From assembly GCA_963704905.1 (NCBI GenBank), contig CAVPHZ010000001.1, forward strand, positions 65,547 through 129,546: 64,000 bases of DNA, read 5' to 3'. Both the position numbers and the translations under genes were made by a program. Origin of the DNA: Candidatus Chisholmbacteria bacterium. GTDB taxonomy: Bacteria > Patescibacteriota > Microgenomatia > UBA1400 > Chisholmbacteraceae. A model generated the notes under the pieces. It was given only the letters and a program-made list of their open reading frames with translations. It was not told the origin of the DNA and made no database searches. This document shows positions 2,757-48,520 of the stretch, in pieces (within the stretch, counting starts at the first letter, position 1; each line of letters starts with the position of its first letter).

Positions 2757-3434
2757 ATGCGATTGTTAGTTGTTGAAGATGAACATAAAATTGCCAATTC
2801 TATTAAAAAAGGATTGGAGCAGGAATCCTATGCTGTTGATGTGGCGTTTGATGGCGAGGCTGGTTATGAGCTGGCATCAACTGAAGAGTTTGATGTGATT
2901 ATTCTTGATCTTATGCTGCCTAAGCTGGATGGAATCGAGATTTGTAGAAGGTTAAGAGAAATCAATATTCATATCCCTATTCTTATGCTCACGGCAAAAG
3001 CGGAACTTGATGACAAGGTCAATGGACTCAATGCTGGAGCGGATGATTATTTACCTAAGCCTTTTGCATTTACTGAGCTGTTAGCCCGCATCAAAGCGCT
3101 GACTAGGAGACCAAAGCAAGCGTTAACAACCACGCTTGAAGTTGAGGATCTGCAGCTAGATACACTATCGTACAATGTACTGCGATCTAAAAAAAAGGTT
3201 TCGTTGTCAAAGAAGGAATTCAGCTTGCTTCAATATATGATGCGACACGAGGGTAAGATTCTAACTAAAGATCAGATAATAAATCATGTGTGGGATTATG
3301 ATGCTAATATTTTACCTAACACAGTGGAGGTTTATATCGGATATTTACGAAACAAAATTGACAAGCCATTTAAGAATTATCCGCGTCTTATTCATACCAT
3401 TCGCGGTTTTGGGTACAAAATAGGGAGAGAGTAG
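2757..3434 (+). CDS. OmpR/PhoB-family response regulator (receiver + winged-helix DNA-binding)
   Basis: REC motifs are present: VEDE, the phospho-acceptor 'DVIILDLMLP' and 'LMLTAK'. The C-terminus is winged-helix-like ('TKDQIINHVWDYD...VYIGYLRNKID') and ends in 'IRGFGY'. Confidence 0.85.
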   Translation: MRLLVVEDEHKIANSIKKGLEQESYAVDVAFDGEAGYELASTEEFDVIILDLMLPKLDGIEICRRLREINIHIPILMLTAKAELDDKVNGLNAGADDYLPKPFAFTELLARIKALTRRPKQALTTTLEVEDLQLDTLSYNVLRSKKKVSLSKKEFSLLQYMMRHEGKILTKDQIINHVWDYDANILPNTVEVYIGYLRNKIDKPFKNYPRLIHTIRGFGYKIGRE

Positions 3435-9726: not shown

Positions 9727-10521
9727 TTAGTAAAACACGCCAATGACGTAACTTGTTCCTTGAAGCGTTGGATTGTCGAGGATTAATGCTCCGTGGGTAT
9801 TGTGCCATACTTCAAAATCAGTTGCTCCGAGGCTGTTCATCGTTAATAAAAACTCTGCCATTGCGACTGGAGAGTCTAGGTGATCATCCTCGTAGTTCAG
9901 GAGTGATGGATAATCGAAATTACTAATTGTCGATATTGTTTCATCATTCTTTTCCATTGCTTCCAGTTGCATAAATTCATGAGAAAAATCGACACTAGCG
10001 ATAAATAATGATCCTGTGGGAAGTAACTGCGTGAAGAACTTGGCTTTGCTTTCCAGATCATCGAGGTTATATTGAGCGGAAATGATGAGTGGTATAACTT
10101 TCGCATTTGGAAAATACTCAGTCACATACGGAAGCAGTTCCTGAATGCTATGCTCTGTAGCAACTCGTTCATCATCAATGATAATTTCGGGAAATTCCTC
10201 TGTAATAGCTAGGATGATATCTTTTGCAAGATTAATACCCTCTAATTGCTCAGCGGTTTTAAAGGTTGCTACCTCGGTTTCAAGGTGATTTGGACCAAAA
10301 ATGATGATATGGGAAAACTCTTTCTCCTGTGAAAGATTCTTAAGTGATTCGTTTATAAGTTCGCTCGCAACAGCGTGGTGCGGAAGAATAATTCCCCTCA
10401 CCTCTTCATAGGTTTTCGTTCCTGCTACTTCTCCACTTGAATGTTGATTGAGGTAGTATGTTAGTAAAGATGAAATTACTAAAGCAACAAGTGCAATACC
10501 AAAGCTTTTCTTCATATTCAT
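9727..10521 (-). CDS. Memo-family (MEMO1 / AmmeMemoRadiSam protein B-like, LigB superfamily) protein, signal-anchored or secreted
   Basis: The N-terminus has a hydrophobic signal. 'ILPHHAVAS', 'IIIFGPNH', 'EHSIQELLPYV...AKVIPLII' and 'ASVDFSHEF' align with Memo motifs (PHAGyxYSG / vvlGPsH / EHSlEmQLPfL...kivPilvg / SDfSHyg). It overlaps and abuts the flanking genes, indicating an operon. Confidence 0.6.
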   Translation of the reverse strand: MNMKKSFGIALVALVISSLLTYYLNQHSSGEVAGTKTYEEVRGIILPHHAVASELINESLKNLSQEKEFSHIIIFGPNHLETEVATFKTAEQLEGINLAKDIILAITEEFPEIIIDDERVATEHSIQELLPYVTEYFPNAKVIPLIISAQYNLDDLESKAKFFTQLLPTGSLFIASVDFSHEFMQLEAMEKNDETISTISNFDYPSLLNYEDDHLDSPVAMAEFLLTMNSLGATDFEVWHNTHGALILDNPTLQGTSYVIGVFY

Positions 10522-10524
10522 AGA

Positions 10525-13500
10525 CTACTTTCTTTCATTAATTGATATTGGCTCTTCAGCCACGCTAGAAAATACTGACAACGCTCTGGTTGATTGGAAT
10601 ACAATTGGTTCCGCAATATATGTACCCACTGCGTTGGCTCTCGCATAATACACCAGCTGTCTACTTCCATGCACTTGCCACCATGGAGAGTTGTAGAAGG
10701 AATAATTCATTATATTCCGTTCACTTTCTCGGATCCACCCGTTTTGCTTCAAACCATACGCACTTGGATTTTTAATGTAAGTTAATCCAGATGGGAGATA
10801 ATCCGTGATTGTATAACCTCCTAGTGGTGCTGTATCAATATTGAGATTAAAGTCAATTGTGACTTGAATGATATCACCAGGAACAATTGAGTCTCCCTCA
10901 CCTCGTGCTTTTGAATATGTTCGCTTGAGAGTCAATCTGTCATCTGATGGAGCTTGAGCAAATTTATCCGGCCCAACAAAATACGTGGTTGTGACTTCTG
11001 CTTTTCCGTCAGTGACTTCTACAGTAGAGTTGTTTAGCTCGTTTTTCTCAAGGTTCAGTACCCAATTTCTTCCACCTTCGAGAGTCTTTGAAAGATTTCT
11101 TGCGTTTGAAGTAAACGTCACCGCGGTATCTTCCTCTGGTAGTTTTTCTAATTCACTCGTTATGAAGGCAATATCCCCCAGGTCGAGGACAATATCTTCA
11201 GCTTGAGTTTTGTAATCTCTGAGGTATTCATAGAAGCCATCGTTATATTGCTTCTCAACTAAATTGCCAAGAAGGAGGGCAAGGCTAGTATCTTGGATGT
11301 AGCTATCGAGTTGATTTCCTTTCTTGTCTTCAGCTTGGATTCGAATATACGGAGTGTAGGTGTAAGCATAATCTGCGAGGATGTCATAGTAGAGATCCCG
11401 GGCAACTTCAACTTCTCCACTACTTGCTAATGCAATGCCTGCCACTACTTTTTCCTCAAAGGTTGTTGCTGAATCTGCTAAGGCACGCAACCTGTTCACT
11501 TCGGGCTCGTCTAGACTTGATAATCCCCAAGCCGCATATATCTGTTGAATCGTACCACCTCTGCTTTGAGCAAGTTGAGCCTCAAGATAGCTGATGAGCT
11601 CGGCTTTATCGAATGACTCTGAGTGGATATATAACGCCCAGGCAGTCGACTTTAAATGACTTCCACCCCAATTTACTTGTGCCAACCCCCCATCTTCATT
11701 TTGGAACTTGGTTATGTCTTCTTTTTGGATTTGACAAGAAGTGTCGTTATACTTATCGAATAGAATATTTCCTGCGGCTATTCGTGCAAGTTGCTTCTCG
11801 AGTCTATTGCTGTATAAATAACAAAATCTCGTTAGATTACGATAGTAGCTCCCCTTCCCTTCATCACTAATCACAACAGTTACCGGCCGTTCTTCAAGGA
11901 TATTATCTTGTTTTACCGCATCTGTTCTGTCTCCTTTGTTGAGAATGCTCTTTTCTTCACTGTTGAACACAAATCTCGTGTCCAAGACATTGAACGGTAA
12001 TGCAATACCATCATCATAGGAGGAAGTATGTCCGCTTAGCGTAACTTTATACTCGCCTAAGGGGAGGAATGGAAAGGCAAAATTCACAGGTTTGAATGCG
12101 GTGGCAGTCTTATTCTCTTTCTTGACTTCCTCTTCACCGTTTAGAAAGATTGCTTCAAACTGTACAGTATCGCTGCTTGATAGTGCATTTCCGAATGAAT
12201 TCCCGGTAATATATGGTTTTTCTTTATTGAGATACTCCCTGGGAAATTGGCTAGTTACAAAAAAGTCTTTGCTCACGATGAGGCTTGACTCTAGTTGACC
12301 TGCATCGACGTTCCCTGATAACGCTTGGGCATAGATAATCCATGATGTGATATTGTCAGGAAGGTCAAATTCAAAGTTCGCGTATCCTTCAGCGTTGGTT
12401 GTAGCTTTTCCAAAAAAGGCCGTGTCCTTAAACAACTCCCGCATACCTCCACCGCCGCCTTTTTCGGCTTGAGCTTTGTCAGGAAATAGTGGTTTGTGAG
12501 AATTGTAGGTGTAATAGATAAAGCTCGATTCAGTTTCATAGAGCGATGGGAGAATGTTTGGCTCCCGTACACCACCAATCGCTGCTAAGGCTTGATCGAT
12601 TAAGGCGAGGTTGACAGATGCGTTTGAGATTGGACTCTCATCTTTTTTTACCCTTACACTTATCGAGGCTTTTCTACCTGGCTCAAAAGACGATTGGCTG
12701 GGAATGATTTCAAGATCTAACTGACTATCCAGTTGTTTGTAACGAATTTCTAGTCCACTGAAGTAATCTTCCCCATATCCATAGTATGAGTAACAGCTCC
12801 AACCCCATCGGCATGGAGTGGATACGGCTTCATAGTATCTTCCTGTAAAGGAGATTGCTGCTAAATAAATATTTGGAATATGAATCTGTTCAAATATAAA
12901 TGAAGTGTTCGGACTTTCTGAAACAATAGTTTTTTGCTCACCTTTCTTGGCAATTATAAAGAGGAAGCGATTTTTGTCATTGTCCGGATAATCCTCGTCG
13001 TTAATGATGATTTTTGCATCGATTAACTCTCCAACTGAGTAGGAATTTTCATCTTTGTTTACGGTAAGTTCCGGGTTTCGTTGCTCGGAGTAGCTCCCCT
13101 CACCTCGGCCTGGATAATAGTAGTACCACTCTGTCCGATTTGTTTCATGATTGTCACTGTCTACAATACTTATGTCAGCCCTGTATGATTTTCTTGGTTC
13201 CATCTGAAATTCTTTGTAAATCTGACCATTTTGATCAGTATTCATTTGAATATCTTCGACAATTTCTTTATGTTGTATGTACTGATATCTCGGTCGAGTT
13301 ACTTTCTCAATAAAATCATAGTAGACACCAGCTTCTTTTCTTTCTGACCATTGTTTGGTAATTTTAAGATTTACCTTGTGATTCTGAGAAGGACTCCCTT
13401 TTACCTCATTTGTTGTTCCCGCATTCATGCCGCTGAGGTCAACATGATTAACCGTTGCTATTAGCTTGGCTTTGTCGTTTTCCTGTTCGTTTTCCGTTGA

Positions 13501-15753
13501 AATCATTACTTTACTACCATAGACATAGACACTTCCATGACCTTCGATAGTTGCTTGCTCAGCGAGGGCCGGTGTAATCGTAATGCTTTCGTAGCGGGGG
13601 TAATTGTATCCACCTGTTTTATAGACAGGAGTGTAGGTAAATGTTGCTTCTCCGTTAAGGCTGGTTTCTAATTCGGAAGTTTTGTTGTTTTGTGATTCAT
13701 GGATTTTGATAGGAATATTACTAGCTGGAGTTTCATCAAAAAATTTTACTTGGGATGTATATTTTACTGTTTGATCGGTAAATATCGCTTTTTTATTTGC
13801 ATCGACTTCGATTTTCATTTCAGGTTTCTCGTATTCCAATACCTGAAACCCAAGACTCGTGATCTGTAAATCATTTACCGAAAGCGATAAGGTGTACCAA
13901 CCAGTTGGCGCGTCTACTAGAGCAAAGCTTTCAAGAAATGTTCCATCAGGTTGTGGATTTACAGTTTTCTTTAATACATCACTTTCCCCTCGCTGATACC
14001 CTATTGAGAGACTGAGCGTCGCGGAGGGGGTAAAATTCGAATCTTTTTCTTTAATTACGCCCCAGAAGTAGACTGTGTCGTTTGGCTTGTACATCCGACG
14101 TTCGTTATAGAGATAGGACCAGTAATCATCTGCAGTTTTTTGATTTGGCCGAGCATTACCTCCAAGCGATCGTACTGGAAGGAGGAGTTTTTTCTGATCT
14201 GGGTTTGTGATTTCAAGGTAATGTCTTCCTTTTTCAAAAAAGATTTCTGGGGTATTAAACCTTGCGATTCCATCTTGACTGGTTGAATAACTCAGACCAG
14301 TATCAATAACTTGTATATTTGCCAAACTGGCTGGTTGACTATTCACGATATTAGCCCATACTATTGATTGTTCCTTCCCCGCTGAGACATAGCCAGAAAG
14401 AAAGGTAGATTGGAGCCAAATTTGCTCTAATTTCGTTCCGTCTTCATACCACAGTTGAACAAGATAATAGCCCTCCGGCAAGGCTTGTGGAAGTTGGATG
14501 AAGGAAATATTTTCTTTATTTTGAATTTGAATATCTGCTTCTAAGACTTTTGAAAGGTTGCTCGTTTCAACAGCTTCCTCTTCAGCATAATAATTTCTCC
14601 AACTATCCAAGACTTCGTCGATCTTCTTCCTTGAGTCTAAATACTCTTGACTTGAAGGAAATTGATACACCTGGGCTTTAAGAACATCCTCTGGTTTCCA
14701 ATTTAAAGCGAAGACTTTTGCCATGTATTCTTCATTGGGAACAATTTGAGCAAAATCTACATCAATACTTACTCTGGCAGGTCTCTCCTCTTTTTCCTTG
14801 GTTTGGAAGGTGAATGAATAATCTTCAGAGATGGGATCGTCTCGCGACTCGAGTTTCAACCCTGCTTTGAGGGTCACTCTGTAGACAAATTTTTCGATGA
14901 GTGGTGCTTGTGGAACAATGGCAAGTGTATCTCCGTGCCGTTCGAGTCTGTAATTAATCTTGGGTTCTATGGAAATGAAAGGTGATGGATCTTCATAATC
15001 ATCTTGACTAAACACTAATTCAATTCCGGTATTGATTGGAACATTATTTTTCTTATCACCCGGAATATTACTTATGACTCTAAATTTTCCTTGTGTTTGA
15101 TATGCCCAGCTATAATCACGATCGAATGTATGTCCTTCATGCTCAACGCCTTCTACTGCGAGCTGAACTTTAAACACCTTATCTAAACCTAAAGGTGACT
15201 GTGGAGATATCGTTACTTCCTGGTCATTCCTGGCTGTTATTTGAATTGGAGCGCTACTTTGAATGTTTTGACGAATGAATTGTTCGGTGACTGGTTCTTT
15301 TGACTTTAAAATAAAAACCTCTTTGGGAAGGATTCCGTATGTACTCTGTGTTTGTGCTTCAAGCAAGAAAAACGGTGGTTCACGGTCAGGAATTTCCAGT
15401 CTTTTCCAGTCACCAACAGCCTGAAATCCAGTTGGAGAAGGTCGTTGAAGGAATGAAGGGAGTTTACCTTCCCTGTTTAAGCTGATTAAAACCGTCAATA
15501 ACGCAATAGTTACCAGGCTTGTTGATGTAGCTAAAAGAATTTTCTTTCTACTAGAGAATGTTTGCCAAAATGATTTAAACTGATCTCTTTTGGACGATAA
15601 GGATAGTGAAAGCTTTTTTAATAGTGAGGCGGGTTTACCTAGAATTGATTCCTGATTAGGACCAAGATTTTTAGGATTTGTTGATTGATCCTGAGAAGAA
15701 GGACTTTGATTGTTGTCTGTTGTGTTATTAATCTCAGTGCTGTTTTCGTCCAC
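10525..15753 (-). CDS. Giant (1742 aa) alpha-2-macroglobulin-family protein, N-terminal TM anchor, apparently thioester-less
   Basis: It has a GTG start and an N-terminal Ser/Asn/Gln-rich low-complexity region followed by a TM helix ('ILLATSTSLVTIALLTVLISL'). The A2M hallmark 'FKDTAFF...LPDNITSW' at about nt 12341-12455 matches FPETWLW...PDSITTW. The TED-like region 'FCYLYSNRLEKQ' sits where GCGEQ is expected and has no Cys-x-E-Q. 'EDGGLAQVNWGGSHLKSTAWALY' is TED-like. The C-terminal 'VYYARANAVGTYIAEPIVFQS' resembles the A2M receptor-binding region. Confidence 0.65.
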   Translation of the reverse strand: MDENSTEINNTTDNNQSPSSQDQSTNPKNLGPNQESILGKPASLLKKLSLSLSSKRDQFKSFWQTFSSRKKILLATSTSLVTIALLTVLISLNREGKLPSFLQRPSPTGFQAVGDWKRLEIPDREPPFFLLEAQTQSTYGILPKEVFILKSKEPVTEQFIRQNIQSSAPIQITARNDQEVTISPQSPLGLDKVFKVQLAVEGVEHEGHTFDRDYSWAYQTQGKFRVISNIPGDKKNNVPINTGIELVFSQDDYEDPSPFISIEPKINYRLERHGDTLAIVPQAPLIEKFVYRVTLKAGLKLESRDDPISEDYSFTFQTKEKEERPARVSIDVDFAQIVPNEEYMAKVFALNWKPEDVLKAQVYQFPSSQEYLDSRKKIDEVLDSWRNYYAEEEAVETSNLSKVLEADIQIQNKENISFIQLPQALPEGYYLVQLWYEDGTKLEQIWLQSTFLSGYVSAGKEQSIVWANIVNSQPASLANIQVIDTGLSYSTSQDGIARFNTPEIFFEKGRHYLEITNPDQKKLLLPVRSLGGNARPNQKTADDYWSYLYNERRMYKPNDTVYFWGVIKEKDSNFTPSATLSLSIGYQRGESDVLKKTVNPQPDGTFLESFALVDAPTGWYTLSLSVNDLQITSLGFQVLEYEKPEMKIEVDANKKAIFTDQTVKYTSQVKFFDETPASNIPIKIHESQNNKTSELETSLNGEATFTYTPVYKTGGYNYPRYESITITPALAEQATIEGHGSVYVYGSKVMISTENEQENDKAKLIATVNHVDLSGMNAGTTNEVKGSPSQNHKVNLKITKQWSERKEAGVYYDFIEKVTRPRYQYIQHKEIVEDIQMNTDQNGQIYKEFQMEPRKSYRADISIVDSDNHETNRTEWYYYYPGRGEGSYSEQRNPELTVNKDENSYSVGELIDAKIIINDEDYPDNDKNRFLFIIAKKGEQKTIVSESPNTSFIFEQIHIPNIYLAAISFTGRYYEAVSTPCRWGWSCYSYYGYGEDYFSGLEIRYKQLDSQLDLEIIPSQSSFEPGRKASISVRVKKDESPISNASVNLALIDQALAAIGGVREPNILPSLYETESSFIYYTYNSHKPLFPDKAQAEKGGGGGMRELFKDTAFFGKATTNAEGYANFEFDLPDNITSWIIYAQALSGNVDAGQLESSLIVSKDFFVTSQFPREYLNKEKPYITGNSFGNALSSSDTVQFEAIFLNGEEEVKKENKTATAFKPVNFAFPFLPLGEYKVTLSGHTSSYDDGIALPFNVLDTRFVFNSEEKSILNKGDRTDAVKQDNILEERPVTVVISDEGKGSYYRNLTRFCYLYSNRLEKQLARIAAGNILFDKYNDTSCQIQKEDITKFQNEDGGLAQVNWGGSHLKSTAWALYIHSESFDKAELISYLEAQLAQSRGGTIQQIYAAWGLSSLDEPEVNRLRALADSATTFEEKVVAGIALASSGEVEVARDLYYDILADYAYTYTPYIRIQAEDKKGNQLDSYIQDTSLALLLGNLVEKQYNDGFYEYLRDYKTQAEDIVLDLGDIAFITSELEKLPEEDTAVTFTSNARNLSKTLEGGRNWVLNLEKNELNNSTVEVTDGKAEVTTTYFVGPDKFAQAPSDDRLTLKRTYSKARGEGDSIVPGDIIQVTIDFNLNIDTAPLGGYTITDYLPSGLTYIKNPSAYGLKQNGWIRESERNIMNYSFYNSPWWQVHGSRQLVYYARANAVGTYIAEPIVFQSTRALSVFSSVAEEPISINERK

Positions 15754-17225: not shown

Positions 17226-17292
17226 ATGTCTAAGTTATTAGAAACATTTCGTAAAGTCAATTCCAAATAAAGAATGTTGTATATTGGTTTTA

Positions 17293-18855
17293 ATGAATAA
17301 GAAAAGGATTGGTATTGTTGTTGGAATTTTTGGATTTGTATTGCTTCTATTTTTGATTCCTGGACTAGTAGACAAGGGCAGCAAACCTGATTCAGGTGAT
17401 TCCAACTCTTCTTCTGAAGCAACTCTTCAACAAGTAAGTGTTAGAAAAGCGGCAGTATCCGGACAGTTTTATCCAAAAGATCAAGATGAGCTGAAGGAAA
17501 CTATCACAGGGTATCTGTTAAGCGCTGCTAAACAAAACAGTGAAATTAAACCAAGGATACTATTTGCTCCCCACGCCGGATTAGAATTCTCTGGAAAAAC
17601 TGCTGCATATGCTTATAAGCAAATAGAAGGTCACCAATACTCGAGGGTAATTATCCTTAGTGGAAATCATCATCATAAGAGTAAAAAAGCTGCGGTATAT
17701 GATCAGGGATCTTGGGAAACACCACTTGGTGCTGTTGATGTCGATGAAACCATTGGTCTTATGCTTATTGATGAGGAGAAAAGTATTATTTCGAATCCAA
17801 CTATGTTCACTCAAGATCATACGATTGAAATGGAGATACTCTTTCTTCAATCCGTACTAAATGACTTTAAAATTGTACCAATTCTTCTTGGTCAGGTAGA
17901 TGAAAGTGTCATCGAAGCGTTAGCACAGAAGCTCTACGAAATCATGGATGAGAACACACTGATTGTAGTAAGTACTGACCTTTCCCACTATCCAACATGG
18001 GAAGTTGCTAACCAAGTTGATCATCAGACGATTAATGCAATTGTCGGTGGTAGTCGGGAAACTTATCTCAATTCAGTTGAACATTTAACTCAAGAATATG
18101 CTTCACAAATCGATACTCATGCATGTGGAACCAAAGCCGTTGAGGTTGCACTGCAAACTGCTGAACTACTTGAGATATCAGACTTTGAGCTGATTGTTTA
18201 TTCAAATTCTGGAGATATTACAGGTGATCATTCTCGAGTTGTTGGGTATGCTGCAATTGTTGCTAGCAAAGATCATCTTCCTGGTTCATTTCTTAATGAA
18301 TCAGCAAAGAAAGAGGCGCTGGCTATTGCTCGAGAAACACTTGAGTCATATTTGACAGGTGGCGGCACGCCTCAATTTTCACCACATTCACGGTATCTCT
18401 ATTTTCCCCTTGGTGCATTTGTTACTCTGGAGAATGGTGATCAGCTTCGAGGTTGTATTGGTCATTTTGAACCTGCCATACCACTCCATAGAGTCATCCA
18501 GCAGGCAGCGATTGATGCGGCAACCAAGGATCACCGTTTTAAAAATGTCACTTCGTCCGAGATGAATGAGATTGAGATTGAAGTATCAATCATGACACCT
18601 CGGAGGAAAATAGACTCTTGGGAAGAAATCGAACTTGGCAAGCATGGTGTAGTTGTGCAAAAATCTAAAATATCTGGTACTTTTTTACCTCAGGTTGCAA
18701 CCGATACCGGGTGGAGCAAGGAAGAATTCTTAAAAGAGCTTTGTAGTCAGAAAGCCGGTCTTGCCAGAAATTGCTACCAAGACCCTTCGGTTGCACTTTA
18801 TGTATTTGAAGCACAGATTTTTGCAGATTATGAAGTCTCGGGATCACATATCTGA
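17293..18855 (+). CDS. Memo (AmmeMemoRadiSam protein B-like) - AMMECR1 fusion protein with N-terminal signal anchor
   Basis: N-terminus 'MNKKRIGIVVGIFGFVLLLFLIPGLV' followed by a Ser-rich linker. Memo motifs are 'LFAPHAGLEFSGKTAA', 'VIILSGNHH', 'DHTIEMEILFLQ...FKIVPILLG' and 'VVSTDLSHYP'. The C-terminal half has the AMMECR1 signature 'LRGCIGHFEP' at nt 18436-18474. Confidence 0.7.
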   Translation: MNKKRIGIVVGIFGFVLLLFLIPGLVDKGSKPDSGDSNSSSEATLQQVSVRKAAVSGQFYPKDQDELKETITGYLLSAAKQNSEIKPRILFAPHAGLEFSGKTAAYAYKQIEGHQYSRVIILSGNHHHKSKKAAVYDQGSWETPLGAVDVDETIGLMLIDEEKSIISNPTMFTQDHTIEMEILFLQSVLNDFKIVPILLGQVDESVIEALAQKLYEIMDENTLIVVSTDLSHYPTWEVANQVDHQTINAIVGGSRETYLNSVEHLTQEYASQIDTHACGTKAVEVALQTAELLEISDFELIVYSNSGDITGDHSRVVGYAAIVASKDHLPGSFLNESAKKEALAIARETLESYLTGGGTPQFSPHSRYLYFPLGAFVTLENGDQLRGCIGHFEPAIPLHRVIQQAAIDAATKDHRFKNVTSSEMNEIEIEVSIMTPRRKIDSWEEIELGKHGVVVQKSKISGTFLPQVATDTGWSKEEFLKELCSQKAGLARNCYQDPSVALYVFEAQIFADYEVSGSHI

Positions 18856-22907: not shown

Positions 22908-23759
22908 ATGAATGTCGTCATTTTAGGGCATGTGTGTATTGACCAGAATGTGACAGAACATGCTGAGTACGTATCTGCTGGTAGTCCGGCGATGTTTATG
23001 ACGAAGATTTTTAGAAAGTTTCCTGAAGTTAAGTCGAGAATTGTTTCTACATATGGGCCAGATTTTCTTACCTATCTGGATAGTGTTGAAATTCACCCGA
23101 AACATCCAAATTGCAATACAACATTGATTTATAAGAATCTGGTTTCAAAGCGTGGTCGTATTCAAAAAGCTATGAATCGAGGTTGTGCTGTACCAGTACC
23201 GATTAACAATCGACTAGGCTTACATCTTTAATCAGCTCAGGTTGCTATTTTTGCACCATTACTTGCTAATTATTCTCCCAGATATGTAAGGCAAGTGGTA
23301 AGACATCTGTCTGATACTACCGTAAAAGTGTTGCTCCCCCAAGGATACTTTCGCCGATTTGATCGAAATAATCAGGTTATTGTTCGTGATTTTAGAGAAG
23401 AAAATAAGATTTTGCCAATGATGGACTTTGTAATTCTTTCTGATGAGGACCATCCAAGATTCCTATCCATCGCAAAAAGATGGTCTGTTACTTATAATCT
23501 TTCTGCAATAGCTACAAAAGGAGAGAAGGGAGCGCAGATATTTACACGCGGCACTTCGGTATTGGTCAAAACACAATCAATTCCAAAACATGAGGTTGTA
23601 GATTCAGTTGGAGCTGGAGATGTTTTTAGTGCAAGCTTCATTTAGTACTATCAAAAGTCTGGGCGACTTCAACATGCAGTTCGCACCGCAAATTCCGTTG
23701 CGAGGCAGTCACTTTTCTTCACTCCCCTTGAGATTTCTTCCATGAATCTTGGTCTCTAG
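22908..23759 (+). pseudogene. PfkB-family carbohydrate kinase, disrupted (in-frame TAA at 23229-23231 plus frameshift near 23645)
   Basis: The N-terminal part (22908-23231) and middle part (to 23645, '...DSVGAGDVFSASFI') lie in one frame separated by a stop. The C-terminal part continues in another frame ('YYQKSGRLQHAVRTANSVARQSL...') to about 23759. GAGD is the PfkB signature. Confidence 0.5.
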
Positions 23760-23811: not shown

Positions 23812-24189
23812 TTAGCTGTTGAGTTGTTTCTTCACTCGTTTTACAACGTCTTTAAGTGACATATCTGATTTGACGATATACTCATCTGCACCTAGTTGCT
23901 TTGCTCTGTTAATCTCCTCTTCCCTACTTAAATTTGATATGACGATGACTTTGGTTTTTGGGTGCTCCAGATGAATGATATTTAAGACATCATAACCGCC
24001 CAACCCTGGCATGAGAATATCCAATAGTATAAGATCAAACGATTGTTTTTCTAAGGTTTTGAGTGCCTGCACACCATCAGAAGCAACTTGCGCCTTCACC
24101 CCCTCATTGTTAAGTAATTCATTTAATGCGCTTGCAATCGGTTTTTCGTCTTCGACTATTAATACACGTTTCTTATGTTTCATTATCAA
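23812..24189 (-). CDS. Stand-alone response-regulator receiver (CheY-like) protein
   Basis: 'VLIVEDE', 'DLILLDILMPG' and 'VIVISN...K'. No output domain. Confidence 0.8.
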   Translation of the reverse strand: MIMKHKKRVLIVEDEKPIASALNELLNNEGVKAQVASDGVQALKTLEKQSFDLILLDILMPGLGGYDVLNIIHLEHPKTKVIVISNLSREEEINRAKQLGADEYIVKSDMSLKDVVKRVKKQLNS

Positions 24190-24598
24190 TCTCCTCTTTA
24201 ATGTTGGATGTATCTTGTTTTGATTGTAATAATATTTTTACCTCCTCTACTATCTGATCAAGGCTATAGTTTGATTTTATGAAGTATTTTGATATTCCAA
24301 TGTCAGAATAAGACAACACTCTTCCTGACCAGCCAACGTTTGAAACAACAATTATCGGAATATCTTTAAACTGCTCCTGTTTCTTGATCCGAGTGATGAG
24401 TTCCGCTCCTGTTAGATCTCCAGGAAGATAGTGATCGAGCCAAAATAAATCAATTCTTGGCGCATTTTGAAGCATTAGGAGTGCACCTTCAGCGGTTTTT
24501 GAAGTGAGAACCTTATATCCCTTCTCTCCAAGTTTATCTTGAATAGCATCAAGAAGCGTTTTATCGTCCTCGACGACACAGATCGTAAAGTTATTCAT
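24173..24598 (-). CDS. Stand-alone response-regulator receiver protein
   Basis: 'ICVVEDD', 'DLFWLDHYLPG', 'IIVVSN'. It overlaps both neighbouring genes, indicating an operon. Confidence 0.8.
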   Translation of the reverse strand: MNNFTICVVEDDKTLLDAIQDKLGEKGYKVLTSKTAEGALLMLQNAPRIDLFWLDHYLPGDLTGAELITRIKKQEQFKDIPIIVVSNVGWSGRVLSYSDIGISKYFIKSNYSLDQIVEEVKILLQSKQDTSNIKEEIDNET

Positions 24599-24601
24599 TG
24601 T

Positions 24602-26536
24602 TTACTCCAATTTTTTCTTACCTGCTTTTTTATTCATTCCTTTTGTAGGTATAGTCAGGGTAAATATTGTTCCTTTATTTTCCACAGAGGAAAACCAAAT
24701 TTCTCCTCCAATGTGATCTAGAATCGATTTTACTATATATAATCCTAAGCCTGTACCTGATGTATCTTTTTTCCGTACGTTATCGGCTCTGTATAGTTTT
24801 GAAAATATCTGGTTTTGTTGATCTTTTGGAATTCCATACCCCGTATCTTCTATGATAATTGCTATACTATCTTCCTTCGTTTTGTGATGATCTATTTCAT
24901 GGCCTTTTCTGATCTGCTTGGTAGTTATTGAGACTATTCCTTGTTGAGGCGTATATTTCACAGCATTTGATATGAGATTTTGCAAAATCATCCGAGTTAA
25001 TTTCGGATCCAATGGAATCTTTTTGGTTTTTTCGTACTTCTTTACTAGCTTTATTTTCTTCTCTTTAATTTGCGGTTTTAATTCTTGAGTGATGGAATCT
25101 ATGAGTTCGGTAATTTCAATATTTTCTGGCTCGACTGAAAATGTTCCTAACTCTAATCTTGAGACATTGAGGAGTGCGTTCACTAGATCAATCATTCGCA
25201 GGTTTGACTTGTAAATTTCTTCGATTCTTTCTTTCTGTTTTGTTGTAAGATTTTGTTTATTTGCAAGAAGCATTTCAGAATACCAACGTATGGTTGAAAG
25301 AGGTGTTCGAAGTTGGTGGCTTGCCAGAGAAACAAATTCTGACTTTGCCTTATCTATCGCCCTTTCTCTTGAGATATCCCTAAAGATAATTGCTGTTCCA
25401 ATAGTTTTTCCGTGTAATTGAACTGGTGAGACGGTAATAGCAACTGGAAATGTGACTCCGTTATTCTTTCTCAGTGACAGATTACCAACCCTAATTGTCT
25501 TGCCATTTCTTAATACTTGATTAATTGGTAAATTTTCATTTTGAATTCCTTGTCCGTTTTTATCAATGACTGCATCTTTTCCTAAGAAGTCTGGCCAGAC
25601 TTGACCAATGGGTTGATCGTTTAGATCTAACATTTGTCTAGCCGATTCGTTCATGAGGACTATTTTTCTCTGCTCATCCGCTACAACCAGACCGTCGCCC
25701 ATACTTTTTAATATTGCCTCATCTTTGGCTTTTGCTTGTGCAAGCTGTGACGTACGCTCACGAACTTTATGCTCAAGACCTTCGTATAAACTCTTTAACT
25801 CTTCTGTCATTGTGTTAAAAGCTCTTGCTAATTCACCAATCTCGTCTTTTGATTTTGCATCGTCGAGTCTAATGGTGAGATTTCCGTGAGCAATTTCTTT
25901 CGTAGTTTCCACAACACTTGTTAATCTCCTACTAATCCCTCTCATGAGGATTAAGAAATTTCCTATCATCACAAGCGCTAAAAATGTCATCCCTCCGAGA
26001 GCTATGAATCCTCTAGTTTGCGTGGTGGCAACTACTTCTTGGCTTTCAAGCCTATCGAGTTCGAGCGCATTTGCCACAATAAGCTCTGCTCGTATGAATA
26101 GTTTCTCAAAGGATTGATATGTTGTAATGTTTCCACTATTTTTATCCTCTTCAGTTTCTTGATTAACATCTTGAACTAACTCATCAAAGGCAATTTCCAT
26201 TCCAGTGATGTCTTCATGTATCTGGGAAGCTATTTCATTTGTAGATCTTGATTGTAATGCTAGGGAGGACATTTTCTGTTGAATTTGTTTGAGATTTTCT
26301 TTCCACTGTTCTTGTATTTGCTCGTCTGGTTCGATGAGATAATTTGTCGTTTGTACATTTAATGAGATTGTTTCCTTCATTACCTGATTAATTATTGCTC
26401 GCTGCTGTTCAATACGCGCTATTCGCTGTGCGAATGCGTAAAATGATACGAATACTATTGATGCAACAACGAGAGAAATCAGGAAGCTCAGTGTAATTTT
26501 TGTTTTTATTGTCATTATGGCAGTATGAGGTAGCAA
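24602..26536 (-). CDS. Membrane sensor histidine kinase (TM-HAMP-PAS-HisKA-HATPase_c)
   Basis: H-box 'ASHQLRTPL'; N/G boxes 'SNAVKYT', 'DTGYGI', 'GTGLGL'. The N-terminus has a TM pair and a HAMP-like segment. Confidence 0.85.
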   Translation of the reverse strand: MLPHTAIMTIKTKITLSFLISLVVASIVFVSFYAFAQRIARIEQQRAIINQVMKETISLNVQTTNYLIEPDEQIQEQWKENLKQIQQKMSSLALQSRSTNEIASQIHEDITGMEIAFDELVQDVNQETEEDKNSGNITTYQSFEKLFIRAELIVANALELDRLESQEVVATTQTRGFIALGGMTFLALVMIGNFLILMRGISRRLTSVVETTKEIAHGNLTIRLDDAKSKDEIGELARAFNTMTEELKSLYEGLEHKVRERTSQLAQAKAKDEAILKSMGDGLVVADEQRKIVLMNESARQMLDLNDQPIGQVWPDFLGKDAVIDKNGQGIQNENLPINQVLRNGKTIRVGNLSLRKNNGVTFPVAITVSPVQLHGKTIGTAIIFRDISRERAIDKAKSEFVSLASHQLRTPLSTIRWYSEMLLANKQNLTTKQKERIEEIYKSNLRMIDLVNALLNVSRLELGTFSVEPENIEITELIDSITQELKPQIKEKKIKLVKKYEKTKKIPLDPKLTRMILQNLISNAVKYTPQQGIVSITTKQIRKGHEIDHHKTKEDSIAIIIEDTGYGIPKDQQNQIFSKLYRADNVRKKDTSGTGLGLYIVKSILDHIGGEIWFSSVENKGTIFTLTIPTKGMNKKAGKKKLE

Positions 26537-26945
26537 CCAATTTCAACCTAATAATCGTCTAAAGATCGTTGTTATACCATTATTTCCTATTCTTCAAGTA
26601 GCGTCAATTTTGTGAATCATTTGTTGTAGTGATGAAGGTGGAATAACTTGGATTTGTATCAAGTAAATTTAGATTTCTTCTGTGTGATGTTCCTCATTGT
26701 TGGCCGATGTAGTCTGTGTTGAATCTGAAGAGTCTATGACCAACAATACAACTCCAGAGACAATGACCATCCCCAGCAAAATGTGTTCATATGTGGCAAA
26801 AAATGAATTTCAATTCATATCCATTGCAAAAGCAGAATTCAAATAAATTATTTAGGCAGGAGCACATAACAGTACGAGCCGTTATATTTAGTTATACTTT
26901 CCTTATAACTTGCAATTCTGTTTCGATTCATATACTATAGGCACC

Positions 26946-35398: not shown

Positions 35399-35779
35399 TC
35401 AGTTATTGGCGTAAACACGCAATACTTCTCGAATTGTATTTACCAGTTCTTCCATAGAAGTATCAGCTTTCACAAGAAGGCGGTACGCTCCAAGTGAAAC
35501 TACTTTTGCCACTTTTTCACCTTCAGCTAGGTTAGTAAAAACAATAACTGGAGTTTTTGATTTTAATTCACTTGCTCTTAAATGTTCTAAAAACCAGACT
35601 CCATCAGTCTCAGGCATAACGACGTCGAGGATAATACAGTCAACATCATTTTGTTCAAGCTTTTCCCAACCGTCTTTACCATTTATTGCTGTAATGATTT
35701 TTAATCCAGCTTTTTCTAATTTGATTTGGATTGGTTTGATCAAATCAGGGTCGTCTTCAATCACCAGGATTGTCTTCAT
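35399..35779 (-). CDS. Stand-alone response-regulator receiver protein (paralog of 23812-24189)
   Basis: 'ILVIEDD', 'DCIILDVVMPETDG', 'VIVFTN'. Confidence 0.8.
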   Translation of the reverse strand: MKTILVIEDDPDLIKPIQIKLEKAGLKIITAINGKDGWEKLEQNDVDCIILDVVMPETDGVWFLEHLRASELKSKTPVIVFTNLAEGEKVAKVVSLGAYRLLVKADTSMEELVNTIREVLRVYANN

Positions 35780-36177
35780 TTCTTTCCTCTCTTTGAGAGA
35801 AGCCGATTAATTTCATATATAATCTCATCCAAGCGTTTCTCGGCTTTGATGAAGTATTTGTGTACTCCGAGTGCCATCATCGTAGCAACTTTTTCTGGCC
35901 CGGCAGTGTTGCTGACTACAAAGACAGGTATACTTTTGTATTTTGGATTTTCTTTAATCTTGGTTAAAAACTCTAATCCATTCATAGATGGCAAGTAATA
36001 GTCTAGCCAGATGACGTCCGGTCTATTTTTCGGATCTTGTAACAATTCTAATGCTTCTTCTGCGCTAGTTGCTGCTACAGTTTCAAAACCAGTTTTTTCA
36101 AGCTTCTTTTGAATAGCCATTTTTAAAGTTCGCTCATCTTCAACTATAAGAACTCGATTGAAAGATTTGCTTATCAT
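35776..36177 (-). CDS. Stand-alone response-regulator receiver protein (paralog of 24173-24598)
   Basis: 'WLDYYLPSMNGLEFLTKIKENPKYKSIPVFVVSN...KYFIKA' parallels 'WLDHYLPGDLTGAELITRIKKQEQFKDIPIIVVSN...KYFIKS'. Confidence 0.8.
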   Translation of the reverse strand: MISKSFNRVLIVEDERTLKMAIQKKLEKTGFETVAATSAEEALELLQDPKNRPDVIWLDYYLPSMNGLEFLTKIKENPKYKSIPVFVVSNTAGPEKVATMMALGVHKYFIKAEKRLDEIIYEINRLLSKRGKK

Positions 36178-36204
36178 AGTTTCCTTTCTTGTCTAAGTGT
36201 ATCT

Positions 36205-38499
36205 TTATAGGTAAGCATCTTCAAGTGTTCGCTCTCCTTTTTTTGGAGGAGTGCCTGATAATGGGAGAGTAAACCAAAATGTTGTTCCTTTACCTTCTTT
36301 TGATTCAAACCAAATTTTACCTCCAGAAGATTGAACTACCGACTTGACGATGTAAAGTCCTAAGCCAGTCCCGTCTGGAATTACGGATCGAATGTTATCA
36401 GCACGGAAAAATTTATTAAACACTCTCCCTTGCTGATCCTCAGGTATTCCAACTCCATTATCTTGAATTTGAGATATAACGTCGTCTCCTTTTTTTGAAA
36501 TATAGATTTGGATTTCGCCATTTTCCGGTGTGTATTTCACTGCATTTGATATGAGATTTGCATATACTTGTCTGACAAGCTTAGGATCTACTGATATTTT
36601 TGGGAGTTGTTTGTGCTTACTTACTATTATGTGAAGTTTCTTTTCTTTGATTTTTGGAGTGAGCTCAACAATTACCTGATCAATGAGTTTAATAAGATCA
36701 ATTATTTCTGGTTCTATGGTTATTCTTCCCTGTTCAATTCTTGAAACATTAAGAAGAGCATTCACCAGTTCGATCATGCGATCGTTTGAGTCATACATTT
36801 GCTGAACGTATTCCTTCTGTTCTTTGTTAAGCTTCCCTGCATCACCAGAAATGAGCATTTCCGCAAACCAGCGAACTGCAGAAAGAGGAGTTCTCAGCTG
36901 ATGCGAAGCAACTGAAATAAACTCTGTCTTCATTCTGTCTACAGCCTTTTCTTTGGTGATATCTCTTTCTATCCCAACGAAATATTTCACTTCTCCTTTC
37001 ACGTCAAGAATCGGTGAGATGCTCAATGCGGCAATATATGTTTTTCCATTTTTCTTTTTATTTGTCACTTCTCCTTGCCACTTTTGTCTCTTCTTGTGAA
37101 TCGTCGTCCACATATGGTTGTAATACTTCTCATCCATCTGTCCGCCCCAAAGATTTTTTCCAGGATTTTGACCCATGACTTCAACTCGAGTATATCCAGT
37201 ATTCATCACCATTGCTTCGTTTGCATAGATAATTATCCCCTTTGCATCGGTAATGATTATTTGATCTGATGCATTTTCAACGGCTTGTAAAAATTTCTTC
37301 AAATCATCTGCAAGTCGTTCGGAGGTTTCTTTTTCTTTTTCAAGCTCGGCTGTTCGTACCTGCACCCGTTGCTCAAGTTTTCCATAAAGTCCACTCAGCT
37401 CAACAGCCATTCTTCTGAACTCCTGAGCAAGTCGTTCCACCTCATCTCCTGTATCAATATTTAATTGGTAGTCCCATTTCCCTTTTGCGATTTCTTCAGC
37501 CCCTTTCTGCAGTTTTTTTAAAGGTTCTGATATCGTGCGGCTTACTAAGTAAGCGACCAATGAAAAAAGAGCGAGTGTGAGTACTGACACGCCGATTAGT
37601 TCTTGTCTCAGTTGATCTAGCGGTGCAAATACTTCCTCAGCGTCTTGTTTAACCACTAGACCCCAACCTGCAACTAATGGGTTACCATAGGTGGCGATTA
37701 CGTCAACACCTCTATAATCTCTGGTCCTCTCTGTTCCGGATAGACCTTGAGTTGCAAGAACAATGGGGGCTCGTGAATTTTCTTCTATTTTTATCCTATT
37801 TGAGTACTCAGCATTAGAAGCATTGGTTGGTTTATTTATCAAAATAATTTCTTCTCCTTCTCGTTTTCCGAGTAAAACTTCACCGCTTTTTCCCAGACCG
37901 GTAAAATCGTTTGCAATATTTTGAATGGCATTCAGCTTCATGGTTGCGATCAAATAATGAGAAGATTCAAAGCTTAACTGCACTGATCTTTTTACAAAGA
38001 GAGAAGTTCCATTTTCAATAATTCCTACATCTGTATCTTTGTCGAGTACAGCTTTAGATTCCCAATGTTGTTGATTACTATTTCCAGATCTGGAAGATGC
38101 AGAAACTGTTCCTTCAGGTGAGATTATTGCTATCTCGTCAAACGTGGAATTGTTTACAACTGCAGTAGTTAGAATATCTAGAATATCATTCTGAGTATTT
38201 GCATTGCTTACCGCAGCTTTGGTCGCTATATTGCTTACTGTATTTGAAAGTAACTCTACTTCCTTTCTGTACATATTCACTGTCACATCTAACTGGTCTT
38301 GCTTAATACTTATAATTGATTCTACTTGCTTGAATGCTTGATCGCTAAGAAGGTTTTGTGCATTTCGAAAACTCAGATATGATAGAAGAATAACTACGGG
38401 AGTTGTGATCAATGCAATGATGAGGGTTAACTTTGATTGAATGGTGCTCAATCGATGATGTTTCAATCTTGTCTTTTGGTAGTGAGCAGTGTTTTGCAT
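36205..38499 (-). CDS. Membrane sensor histidine kinase with large extracytoplasmic (Cache-like) domain, HAMP, PAS, HisKA, HATPase_c
   Basis: Two TM segments flank an extracytoplasmic domain of about 270 aa. H-box 'ASHQLRTPL'; 'SNAVKYT', 'DNGVGI', 'GTGLGL'. Confidence 0.85.
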   Translation of the reverse strand: MQNTAHYQKTRLKHHRLSTIQSKLTLIIALITTPVVILLSYLSFRNAQNLLSDQAFKQVESIISIKQDQLDVTVNMYRKEVELLSNTVSNIATKAAVSNANTQNDILDILTTAVVNNSTFDEIAIISPEGTVSASSRSGNSNQQHWESKAVLDKDTDVGIIENGTSLFVKRSVQLSFESSHYLIATMKLNAIQNIANDFTGLGKSGEVLLGKREGEEIILINKPTNASNAEYSNRIKIEENSRAPIVLATQGLSGTERTRDYRGVDVIATYGNPLVAGWGLVVKQDAEEVFAPLDQLRQELIGVSVLTLALFSLVAYLVSRTISEPLKKLQKGAEEIAKGKWDYQLNIDTGDEVERLAQEFRRMAVELSGLYGKLEQRVQVRTAELEKEKETSERLADDLKKFLQAVENASDQIIITDAKGIIIYANEAMVMNTGYTRVEVMGQNPGKNLWGGQMDEKYYNHMWTTIHKKRQKWQGEVTNKKKNGKTYIAALSISPILDVKGEVKYFVGIERDITKEKAVDRMKTEFISVASHQLRTPLSAVRWFAEMLISGDAGKLNKEQKEYVQQMYDSNDRMIELVNALLNVSRIEQGRITIEPEIIDLIKLIDQVIVELTPKIKEKKLHIIVSKHKQLPKISVDPKLVRQVYANLISNAVKYTPENGEIQIYISKKGDDVISQIQDNGVGIPEDQQGRVFNKFFRADNIRSVIPDGTGLGLYIVKSVVQSSGGKIWFESKEGKGTTFWFTLPLSGTPPKKGERTLEDAYL

Positions 38500-38511: not shown

Positions 38512-39384
38512 CTACGATTCTTCCCGAGAATCTTTGCAGATAATACTAATTTCTTGTCTCACAGATTTCCTATGCTCCTTATTCAATCCAATATTTTTCA
38601 ATGTATTTTGTTTATCATCTAGAATATCCTTACACAACACGAATCCTAGGCTCAGTAAGTGCTTCTTTTGATCTTCTGAGAGTGTTGTTAAGCATGTAAT
38701 TGGATGTAGATTTGCATCTTCGATCAATTCCCTCAGATTACCGACTCGAGGATAGCCCCAGCTCACAATCTGCATTCCAACGCATTTAGCATATTTAATC
38801 GCTTCGGTGGTTGCTTTGGTGTTCGTGACTAGCCAGACATCATGAAATCTGTCTGTACTAACAATATCTTGCTCTCCTTGAATTGCGACATCATCAAACC
38901 TTGCTTTTGTATAGAGAGCAACTTTTACATCTGAACGGGCACCCGGCTGATTGTGAAATTTGCATTCCAGCATGTGGCGTTTTTTGTTTTTCTCAGCAAT
39001 GACATCTATTTCATGTTCAATACAGTTTCCCATTACAATTTGGTTTGCTTTTGTCTCATAGCCATATCGACCTAGAATAGCAGCAATAAATTTTTCAAAA
39101 GGATATCCACTCGGTCCTAGTTGCATAATCGCACGTTTGAGTGTGTACTTTGCGCTTTGATAGGGAGTTTTTGACTTACCGATAAATTCAATGATGTGTT
39201 TGTAAATTTCAGAAGTTGGAATGCCATCGTAGAGAATATCATTAACGTGAATAATGACATCATTTTCAAGTTCATTTGGGATACGTGCTCTACGTATCGA
39301 CCGGCGCAATTTTTTTTCACTAAATTGCTGTCTTGCACCTGAAGCTTTTGTTACTGAAATGCCAGACCCGTAATTTTGTTTCAT
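38512..39384 (-). CDS. ATP-cone domain fused to Mrr-like PD-(D/E)xK restriction-endonuclease-fold domain
   Basis: The N-terminal 'ISVTKASGARQQFSEKKLRRSIRRA' is ATP-cone-like. The middle 'GYETKANQIVMGNCIEHEIDVIAEKNKKRHMLECKF' is an Mrr_cat-like E-D...E-x-K core. Confidence 0.55.
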   Translation of the reverse strand: MKQNYGSGISVTKASGARQQFSEKKLRRSIRRARIPNELENDVIIHVNDILYDGIPTSEIYKHIIEFIGKSKTPYQSAKYTLKRAIMQLGPSGYPFEKFIAAILGRYGYETKANQIVMGNCIEHEIDVIAEKNKKRHMLECKFHNQPGARSDVKVALYTKARFDDVAIQGEQDIVSTDRFHDVWLVTNTKATTEAIKYAKCVGMQIVSWGYPRVGNLRELIEDANLHPITCLTTLSEDQKKHLLSLGFVLCKDILDDKQNTLKNIGLNKEHRKSVRQEISIICKDSREES

Positions 39385-48405: not shown

Positions 48406-48520
48406 AATTTTCTGATGGCTGTATTGTAACTTCTTCCCTGGTACTTGACAAGCCTGGCGCTCGAGATGAATCTCGAGCATCACTACTTTATTTCAATCAA
48501 AATTCTCTCTAGAAAATAGT

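Follow-up and report, generated by a model that had tools for sequence, protein, structure and literature searches.

Two sensor-receiver modules of a Chisholmbacteria genome belong to a Patescibacteria family with glutamine in place of the HisKA catalytic acid and a possible link to type IV pili

The acid beside the phospho-accepting histidine is treated as a defining catalytic residue of HisKA sensor kinases, and at this position (His+1) it has been described as strictly conserved in the class (PMC8292422). Its replacement in CrdS (E372A/D/G/Q), HK853 (E261A) and two further kinases abolished autophosphorylation but left full phosphatase activity, and NtrB E140Q was kinase-minus and phosphatase-plus in vivo (PMC3510030); DrBphP, which naturally lacks the acid, is a light-regulated phosphatase (PMC8292422). 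Here we report on a 64,000-nucleotide stretch of a Candidatus Chisholmbacteria bacterium genome (contig CAVPHZ010000001.1, positions 65,547 to 129,546; hereafter the window), in which two three-gene operons on the minus strand (copy 1, 23812-26536; copy 2, 35399-38499) each encode a membrane HisKA sensor kinase (HK1, HK2) followed by two receiver-only proteins (REC1a and REC1b, REC2a and REC2b), as seen in the open reading frame (ORF) list and with Pfam, and in which both kinases have glutamine at His+1. HK1 and HK2 resemble DrBphP, CrdS E372Q and NtrB E140Q in having lost the acid while keeping the His+4 residue, and resemble the CrdS and NtrB mutants also in the replacing glutamine, but those are single proteins or laboratory mutants, whereas the substitution described here is fixed in a family, known from sequence, that extends across many candidate phyla.

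The best solved match to the modules is the HK853-RR468 pair of Thermotoga maritima (PDB 3DGE; E 3e-45 for the HK2 core, E 3e-14 for REC2a against RR468), which shares with them the HisKA DHp domain, the HATPase_c domain, the threonine at His+4 and the joint encoding of the kinase with a receiver-only partner. HK853 has Glu261 where HK1 and HK2 have glutamine, however, and these sensors of the candidate phyla radiation (CPR) add an ectodomain, a HAMP domain and a PAS domain; a second receiver is present here, and the W-L-D-[HY]-Y and V-V-S-N motifs of the first receivers (REC-a) are specific to them in comparison with RR468. The order of transmembrane helix, ectodomain, transmembrane helix, HAMP, PAS, DHp and CA is that of the WalK-, PhoR- and PnpS-type kinases, which also gave the best NCBIfam similarities (243 and 251 bits for PnpS, cut-off 400; 232 and 285 bits for WalK, cut-off 725). 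These scores are far below the cut-offs, so that neither HK1 nor HK2 reached those of the named equivalogs WalK, PnpS, PhoR and NblS, and no module protein reached the cut-off of any family in the NCBIfam scan. The partners also differ, being receiver-only here and OmpR-type transcription factors there.

A kinase with two CheY-like receivers that lack a DNA-binding domain is likewise found in the Pil-Chp system of Pseudomonas (ChpA-PilG/PilH), in which PilG and PilH act antagonistically (PMC10519157), and in the Tax1 system of Synechocystis (PixL-PixG/PixH), in which PixG in its phosphorylated form binds PilB1 and is counteracted by PixH (PMC11181946). In both systems one receiver switches on the motor for pilus extension, and the other works against it (PMC10519157, PMC11181946). 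Modules of the CPR related to ours sit inside pilus operons, and the likeness to these two systems extends to the pilus only through that gene neighbourhood of relatives. Pil-Chp and Tax1 differ in using CheA-type kinases, chemoreceptors and CheW where the modules have a transmembrane HisKA sensor, and PixG differs in carrying a PATAN domain; scans of the window gave no match to the CheA, CheW or methyl-accepting chemotaxis protein (MCP) families. At the level of the receiver fold a further comparison can be made with DrdR, a tandem-receiver protein of Xanthomonas campestris that binds PilB and PilT and alters their ATPase activity (PMC13507683). Like DrdR, the REC-a family includes single chains made of receivers only, since natural fusions of a REC-a with a second receiver (REC-b) occur (P0014, P0017 and P0034), as does a fusion (P0024) in which histidine replaces the acceptor aspartate of REC-a (WLHHYL), yielding, as in DrdR, a degenerate pseudo-receiver followed by a receiver. 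DrdR is a proteobacterial orphan, however, whereas the receivers of the window are separate genes, both with an acceptor aspartate.

Both HK1 and HK2 read ...ASHQLRTPLS... around their acceptor histidines, H407 and H533, with the H-box H-Q-L-R-T-P lying at 25301..25318 and 36886..36903 (minus strand), respectively. Gln408 of HK1 occupies the Glu/Asp position, and Gln534 of HK2 aligned with Glu261 of HK853, the nearest solved structure to the HK2 core. Of the features by which the HisKA class is recognised, the acceptor histidine, the ATP-binding boxes and the phosphatase threonine at His+4 are present in both proteins; the acidic His+1 residue is absent from both. The canonical HELRTP was found in the window's own OmpR-partner kinase, a short protein (3437-4492, plus strand) that forms with its OmpR-type regulator (2757-3434, plus strand) the sole classical two-component pair in the window.

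This substitution was not peculiar to the two copies. All 124 kinases with a readable H-box that were encoded directly upstream of a REC-a gene had glutamine at His+1 (H-Q-L-R-T-P), the ten cases left out of this count being nine kinases truncated where the contig stopped and one unrelated gene. In a database search with HK2, the 23 closest proteins all had glutamine at this position, and the next 67 kinases with a readable H-box had glutamate (62) or aspartate (5) and in no case glutamine. The histidine and the His+4 threonine were highly conserved across the family, and the N, G1, F and G2 boxes were at least ~90% conserved. A set of kinases assembled for DHp covariation had been selected on the HQ motif, and was therefore not counted as evidence for conservation of the glutamine.

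Because glutamine replaces the catalytic acid while the histidine, the His+4 threonine and the ATP-binding boxes remain, HK1 and HK2 are probably phosphatase-dominant enzymes with weak or unconventional kinase activity, and we favor a bifunctional enzyme with a phosphatase bias. The stronger version of this proposal, in which they would have no measurable autokinase activity at all, is plausible, but we lean slightly against it. A family fixed for glutamine would mean either that natural signal-regulated phosphatases are widespread or that the requirement for a catalytic acid is not universal.

We defined REC-a by the motif W-L-D-[HY]-Y, by V-V-S-N at the Ser/Thr position and by location of the gene directly downstream of an H-Q kinase, a definition into which REC1a and REC2a fall and REC1b and REC2b do not. 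The pattern [IVP][DS][LVA][FI]WLD[HY]Y, derived from an alignment of REC1a, REC2a and a few close database matches, identified 198 confirmed relatives in 185,579 genomes (one per species). The best 80 of these were nearly all labelled Patescibacteria and spanned Falkowbacteria, WWE3, Roizman-, Doudna-, Woese-, Magasanik- and Moranbacteria, Saccharibacteria and Parcubacteria, and a second scan added 272 further relatives from metagenomes. A REC-a profile search against 1.84 billion representatives yielded no usable family size, since multi-receiver proteins, with their summed scores, dominated its ranking, but it did bring fusions of REC-a and REC-b to light.

ORFs were then called in the related loci and classed by hidden Markov models built from the window proteins. 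Kinase followed by REC-a was the order in ~140 independent loci, a recurrence which argues that the arrangement did not arise by chance, and wherever the contig showed it the gene directly upstream of REC-a on the same strand was a kinase, apart from one unrelated gene. The stand-alone receivers of these loci formed two clean groups, REC-a (84 members; consensus ...IDxIWLDHYL.G...IPIFVVSNTAS..KV.SY..LGV.KYY.KS) and a canonical group (86 members; DLILLD..MP.MDG / LTN / DYLVK), and REC-a accounted for 72 of the 77 receivers placed first after a kinase. A second receiver followed REC-a in 46/72 genome loci and 32/69 metagenome loci, and some loci had three receivers, or a receiver upstream of the kinase. 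As a class, the second receivers are variable accessories of an ordinary kind. No DNA-binding output was present at any related locus examined. On the evidence of these searches, the module family is found throughout Patescibacteria, and REC-a is almost confined to them. Two H-Q kinase modules lay close together in loci L066, L070, L037, L053, L137 and L157, and the possession of several paralogous sensors seems to be common among Patescibacteria genomes.

Mutual information between the kinase DHp helix and REC-a (average product correction; 110 non-redundant, HQ-selected pairs) reached 0.288 at most, against a shuffle maximum of 0.248, the interface between the two proteins being too highly conserved for covariation to identify it. 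The mirror-tree correlation was 0.49 for kinase and REC-a and 0.43 for kinase and REC-b, values too close to tell which receiver is the cognate one.

The Patescibacteria, a large branch of bacteria that is for the most part uncultured, have tiny genomes that encode very few transcription factors. A life attached to host cells is assumed for many of them, and in cultured Saccharibacteria attachment depends on type IV pili. When the proteins encoded around REC-a in the genome loci were clustered and representatives annotated with Pfam, they included the pilus proteins PilB (T2SSE and MshEN) and PilC (T2SSF) and several pilin families (N_methyl), together with kinase-less PAS-only and dCache-HAMP proteins. 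Typical gene orders were pilins, PAS-only protein, Cache-HAMP protein, kinase, REC-a, REC-b, and kinase, REC-a, REC-b, PilB, PilC, pilins. One or more pilus genes lay within seven genes of the module in 26/72 genome loci, and two or more did so in 21/72; when we considered those loci with six or more genes visible on both sides (full context), 14/29 had a pilus gene. The metagenome loci replicated this result (20/75, and 13/21 with full context), giving across both sets a share of 27-36% of related loci and 48-62% of those with full context. The binomial probability of the loci with at least two pilus genes was 3e-11 against an assumed background of ~5%, which is our own, unmeasured estimate.

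In a Pfam census of the 150 nearest neighbours that were neither kinases nor receivers, the counts were PAS 8, HAMP 6, N_methyl 5, T2SSE 4, T2SSF 4, dCache_1 4 and MshEN 4, and every other family was seen three times or fewer, so that pilus families were the sole recurrent category outside the sensors. In addition, 9/26 members of the receiver subfamily to which REC1b belongs were immediately adjacent to a pilus gene, and several receivers of pilus-linked modules were among the nearest relatives of REC2a. For the two window copies themselves, the putative link to the pilus is one of family membership only. A sensor-receiver module that recurs in pilus operons is a concrete candidate for a connection between host sensing and pili in Patescibacteria. 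We found no description of the module, of its glutamine variant (SHQLRTPL) or of a pilus linkage in Patescibacteria in the literature, our coverage of which was incomplete. Its components are familiar; what sets it apart is the family-wide loss of the catalytic acid and the proposed pilus-linked, transcription-free output in a poorly understood radiation.

The PAS-only and dCache-HAMP neighbours share a motif of their own, N-x-L-M-[VI]-G-R-E-L-[KE]-M-[IV]-x-L-K-K, which was found in 27 proteins (L030:2013-3254, L030:4273-5532 and 25 others in L006-L165), was C-terminal in 26 of them, and never accompanied a kinase core. It is possible that these kinase-less proteins represent split sensors and dock with the kinase. 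The motif has no counterpart in the window, and a six-frame search of the window for relatives of the PAS-only or Cache-HAMP proteins returned solely HK1 and HK2 themselves.

Drawing on what is established for two-component systems, on HK853/RR468 as the solved pair closest to ours and on the comparative data, we propose a mechanism in which a phosphatase-biased sensor would control stand-alone receivers acting by protein contact, probably on the pilus machinery, and we consider the chances that this is correct to be evenly balanced. Each sensor would read a different extracellular cue, together with a cytoplasmic PAS input, and would set the phosphorylation level of REC-a and the accessory receiver mainly by regulated phosphatase activity; if autokinase activity were lacking, phosphoryl groups would come from acetyl phosphate or from another kinase. 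As the receivers have no output domain, they would act through binding to other proteins, which is also the reading that the comparative data favor over the phosphorelay that had been offered beside it when the sequence alone was considered. Their most likely target would be PilB or PilC, the motor or platform of a type IV pilus whose genes would lie elsewhere in the genome; PixG/PixH, PilG/PilH and DrdR are precedents for such action by receivers that lack an output domain. One receiver may be the effector while the other serves as competitor or phosphate sink, in the manner of PilG/PilH and PixG/PixH. A bolder extension, that a Patescibacteria-wide class of phosphatase-only or acid-independent HisKA proteins with REC-a/REC-b forms the main switch from cue to pilus motor without transcription, seems unlikely to us; host or prey signals, perceived through dCache or helical-bundle ectodomains, could be the cues of such a switch, with several paralogous sensors per genome converging on one receiver interface.

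Several observations weigh against this mechanism. The invariant histidine and the intact ATP-binding boxes argue for continued phosphotransfer from ATP, and the phosphatase-only version may be wrong. The pilus enrichment leans on the assumed background instead of on whole-genome controls, about half of the full-context related loci have no nearby pilus gene, and a six-frame search of the 64-kb window found no pilus gene. Both copies are surrounded by housekeeping genes in a compact layout. Finally, the locus of the closest named relative of HK2 (56% identity; Candidatus Chisholmbacteria, Microgenomates group, Patescibacteria) is syntenic with the window through GluRS, a P-type ATPase, an ATP-cone/Mrr protein, kinase, receivers and FKBP, and because this synteny of copy 2 with the ATPase and the ATP-cone/Mrr gene is conserved, a local role unrelated to pili is possible.

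The conserved order from P-type ATPase to FKBP is the main argument for a different explanation, in which the modules are ordinary paralogous two-component systems with local, lineage-specific outputs and no common target, the glutamine being a tolerated quirk of fully active kinases; copy 2 might then serve the P-type ATPase and the ATP-cone/Mrr gene (under metal or nucleotide stress, for instance), and copy 1 something else. The lack of pilus genes in the window, their absence near more than half of all related loci, and the intact histidine and ATP-binding boxes are consistent with it as well. However, conservation of the DHp helix and of REC-a is very strong from one candidate phylum to another, which favors a single conserved partner interface with a single function over a variety of them, and local outputs do not account for pilus genes being the sole recurrent non-sensor neighbours. 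A tolerated glutamine is also at odds with the finding that every tested His+1 substitution in four HisKA kinases, glutamine included, killed kinase activity (PMC3510030). We therefore regard this explanation as rather unlikely, although it is the one that survives best beside the phosphatase-biased, contact-based mechanism.

The constant pairing of REC-a with its sensor also allows REC-a to be seen as a DivK-like allosteric modulator of its own, and possibly of the sister, sensor, with the output leaving by another route such as the accessory receiver. REC-a is always encoded beside a sensor, its DHp-facing surface is highly conserved, the unusual catalytic centre might need an activator, and several genomes have at least two such sensors. 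This idea leaves the pilus neighbourhood unexplained, though, unless it is merged with the mechanism proposed above; as the nearest characterised pair, HK853/RR468, is moreover a plain phosphotransfer pair, we judge it quite improbable. A multi-step phosphorelay, in which the kinase would phosphorylate REC-a and an Hpt- or Spo0B-like protein that escaped recognition would carry the phosphoryl groups on to REC-b or to a DNA-binding regulator elsewhere, such as the OmpR-type protein at 2757-3434, would suit the two receivers per kinase, the absence of an output domain and the likeness of REC1b to Spo0F, and the window is 64 kb of a 773-kb contig, but it is very improbable in view of the absence of an Hpt domain from the window ORFs scanned and from the families with at least two matches among the 150 neighbours, the canonical (HELRTP) kinase that adjoins the OmpR-type regulator, and the REC-a/REC-b fusions, which fit joint action better than successive relay steps.

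The sequence-only reading that preceded this analysis had described a duplicated module of kinase and two receivers. The ORFs were found exactly at the coordinates it had given, on the minus strand; the strings that it quoted as shared (WLDHYLPG/IIVVSN/KYFIKS and WLDYYLPS/VFVVSN/KYFIKA) are present in REC1a and REC2a, and its statement that neither copy has a DNA-binding output agreed with the Pfam results, in which Response_reg was the only domain of the four receivers. In BLASTP comparisons HK1 and HK2 were 39% identical over 475 amino acids (aa; E 2e-97), and REC1a and REC2a were 41% identical (E 5e-33), compared with 26-33% for cross-type receiver pairs. REC1b and REC2b, in contrast, were 31% identical, no better than REC1b and REC2a (33%). 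The pairwise alignment that had been suggested as a check of paralogy between the receivers of the two copies thus supported it for REC1a and REC2a, next to the kinases, but not for the distal pair. Neither the glutamine at His+1 nor the pilus linkage had been noted in that reading.

There are two copies of the module, as had been claimed, but not by a local event. The identity of REC2a was 50-54% to the REC-a proteins found in Doudna- and Buchananbacteria, as against 41% to REC1a, and when kinase core, REC-a and REC-b were compared with those of 39 complete modules of other Patescibacteria, the sister copy in the window ranked 16th to 32nd in similarity. A recent local duplication was ruled out by these two results. 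Copies 1 and 2 are, as judged from these identities, anciently diverged paralogues of one module.

The distal receivers have separate histories. REC1b belongs to a receiver subfamily whose members are elsewhere found upstream of the kinase, third in line, or beside PilB or pilin genes, and its nearest solved structures were OmpR-family receivers, Spo0F and TrrA. REC2b formed a separate lineage, a singleton cluster in the receiver clustering, and its orthologue in the syntenic Chisholmbacteria locus was 63% identical (62% for that of REC2a). In close relatives of copy 1 (L001, L002), kinase, REC-a and REC-b lie beside thyA, and a further relative, L003, has two REC-a genes in tandem.

The copies had also been distinguished by their sensor regions, HAMP-PAS in copy 1 and a large Cache-like ectodomain in copy 2. 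The first half of this contrast was mistaken, as Pfam identified HAMP, PAS, HisKA and HATPase_c in HK1 and HK2 alike (HisKA E 1.9e-15 and 1.1e-19; HATPase_c E 6e-27 and 4e-31, respectively); with HAMP-PAS common to both kinases, it is the ectodomain in which the copies differ. The second half was borne out. Hydropathy indicated two transmembrane helices in each kinase, enclosing an ectodomain of ~258 aa in HK2 and ~145 aa in HK1. The HK2 ectodomain gave a full-length, sub-threshold match to Pfam dCache_1 (E 1e-3, 19 bits against a threshold of 45), and PF02743 is recorded for HK2 orthologues (53-64% identical). Its alignment-based AlphaFold model (pLDDT 82.3) resembled the double-Cache ligand-binding domains found in chemoreceptors and in kinases, and Foldseek matched it to Mlp24, PctA, Tlp3 and kinase dCache domains (E down to 6e-10). 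By the profile match, the orthologues and the model together, the HK2 ectodomain is a double-Cache fold between two transmembrane helices.

The HK1 ectodomain was predicted to be all-helical by a single-sequence model (pLDDT 81.6), which was weakly similar to the periplasmic four-helix-bundle sensors LytS-N, Adeh_2942, QseE and NarQ (E 3e-3 or weaker). Local BLAST found one recognisable orthologue of this region (L001, 41% identity) and one weak match. When the N-terminal 248 aa of HK1 were used as query in a word-indexed protein search, no match was obtained, a result of little weight, as HK1 itself was not returned either.

In copy 1, HK1 occupies 24602..26536 (minus strand, as are all module features) and has 644 aa when read from TTG; an ATG at 26515 is the more probable start and yields 637 aa, the length of the public gene call on an identical contig. 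From the N-terminus it comprises, by hydropathy and model, the first transmembrane helix (26441-26497), the ectodomain, a predicted helical bundle (26006-26440), and the second transmembrane helix (25949-26005), and, by Pfam, HAMP (25793-25948), PAS (25361-25720), HisKA (25148-25348) and HATPase_c (24644-25009). REC1a (24173..24598, 141 aa; Response_reg E 1.6e-13) has its acceptor Asp55 in W-L-D-H-Y (24428-24442), together with E10/D11/D12, Ser86 and Lys108. REC1b (23812..24189; Response_reg E 1.7e-26) is a canonical stand-alone receiver of 125 aa from TTG, or 123 aa from an ATG at 24183, with acceptor Asp57 in L-L-D-I-L. A 3-nt gap separates HK1 from REC1a, and REC1a and REC1b overlap by 17 nt, an operon-like spacing.

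In copy 2, HK2 (36205..38499, 764 aa; ORF, Pfam and hydropathy) likewise consists of a transmembrane helix (38374-38430), the double-Cache ectodomain (37600-38373), a second transmembrane helix (37543-37599), HAMP (37393-37548), PAS (36946-37287), HisKA (36727-36933) and HATPase_c (36256-36588). REC2a (35776..36177, 133 aa; Response_reg E 1.3e-20) carries the acceptor Asp59 in W-L-D-Y-Y (35995-36009), and REC2b (35399..35779, 126 aa; E 3.8e-22) carries Asp52 in I-L-D-V-V and has leucine, not an aromatic residue, three residues ahead of the conserved lysine. The spacing is again operon-like, with a 27-nt gap between HK2 and REC2a and a 4-nt overlap of REC2a and REC2b. All four receivers (125-141 aa) have the acidic pair, the phospho-acceptor aspartate, the Ser/Thr and the lysine, and score 51-93 bits for Response_reg, against a cut-off of 30.2, with no output domain.

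Promoter and terminator scans of the region gave counts at or below shuffled expectation and one candidate promoter upstream of HK1 (TTGACG-17 nt-AATAAT, 26579..26607, minus strand; 10/12 matches, 43 nt upstream of the HK1 start), which is to be taken as a mere candidate because such sites were no commoner than expected from shuffled sequence. The window has a G+C content of ~39%, with no compositional island at either locus, and within its 64 kb we found no candidate output protein or nearby transcription factor for the modules. Upstream of HK2 by 12 nt lies a gene for an ATP-cone/Mrr_cat/AF1548-like protein (38512-39384, minus strand; Pfam), in which an ATP-cone is combined with a restriction-endonuclease core of the Mrr type and an AF1548-like domain at the C-terminus and which is in the same place in Candidatus Chisholmbacteria, and, after a further gap of 25 nt, the gene for the P-type ATPase (39410-41500, minus strand; Pfam). 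These two genes are possibly co-transcribed with HK2, and their link to the module is uncertain. The ATPase has a His-rich N-terminus and a C-P-H motif in its membrane domain, and we presume it to be a CopB-type copper exporter.

At coordinates just below those of copy 1, two adjacent short ORFs on the plus strand (22908-23231 and 23295-23645) look like the two parts of a single sugar kinase of the PfkB family. A PfkB match was obtained with the second alone, in the C-terminal part of the profile, and the gene calls on an independent public contig show the same split; the pair may be a pseudogene or a frameshift. Elsewhere in the window, a class II aminoacyl-tRNA synthetase of the Asp/Lys/Asn type (46555-48483, minus strand) has a C-terminal YbaK/ProX-type tRNA_edit domain (E 1e-29), an uncommon fusion. 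A Memo-AMMECR1 fusion is encoded at 17284-18855 (plus strand), and a second, stand-alone Memo-like gene (9727-10521, minus strand) lies beside a PGA_cap gene. An alpha-2-macroglobulin-like protein of 1742 aa (10525-15753, minus strand; A2M, MG2, bait-region and Big_5 domains) is also encoded in this very small genome.

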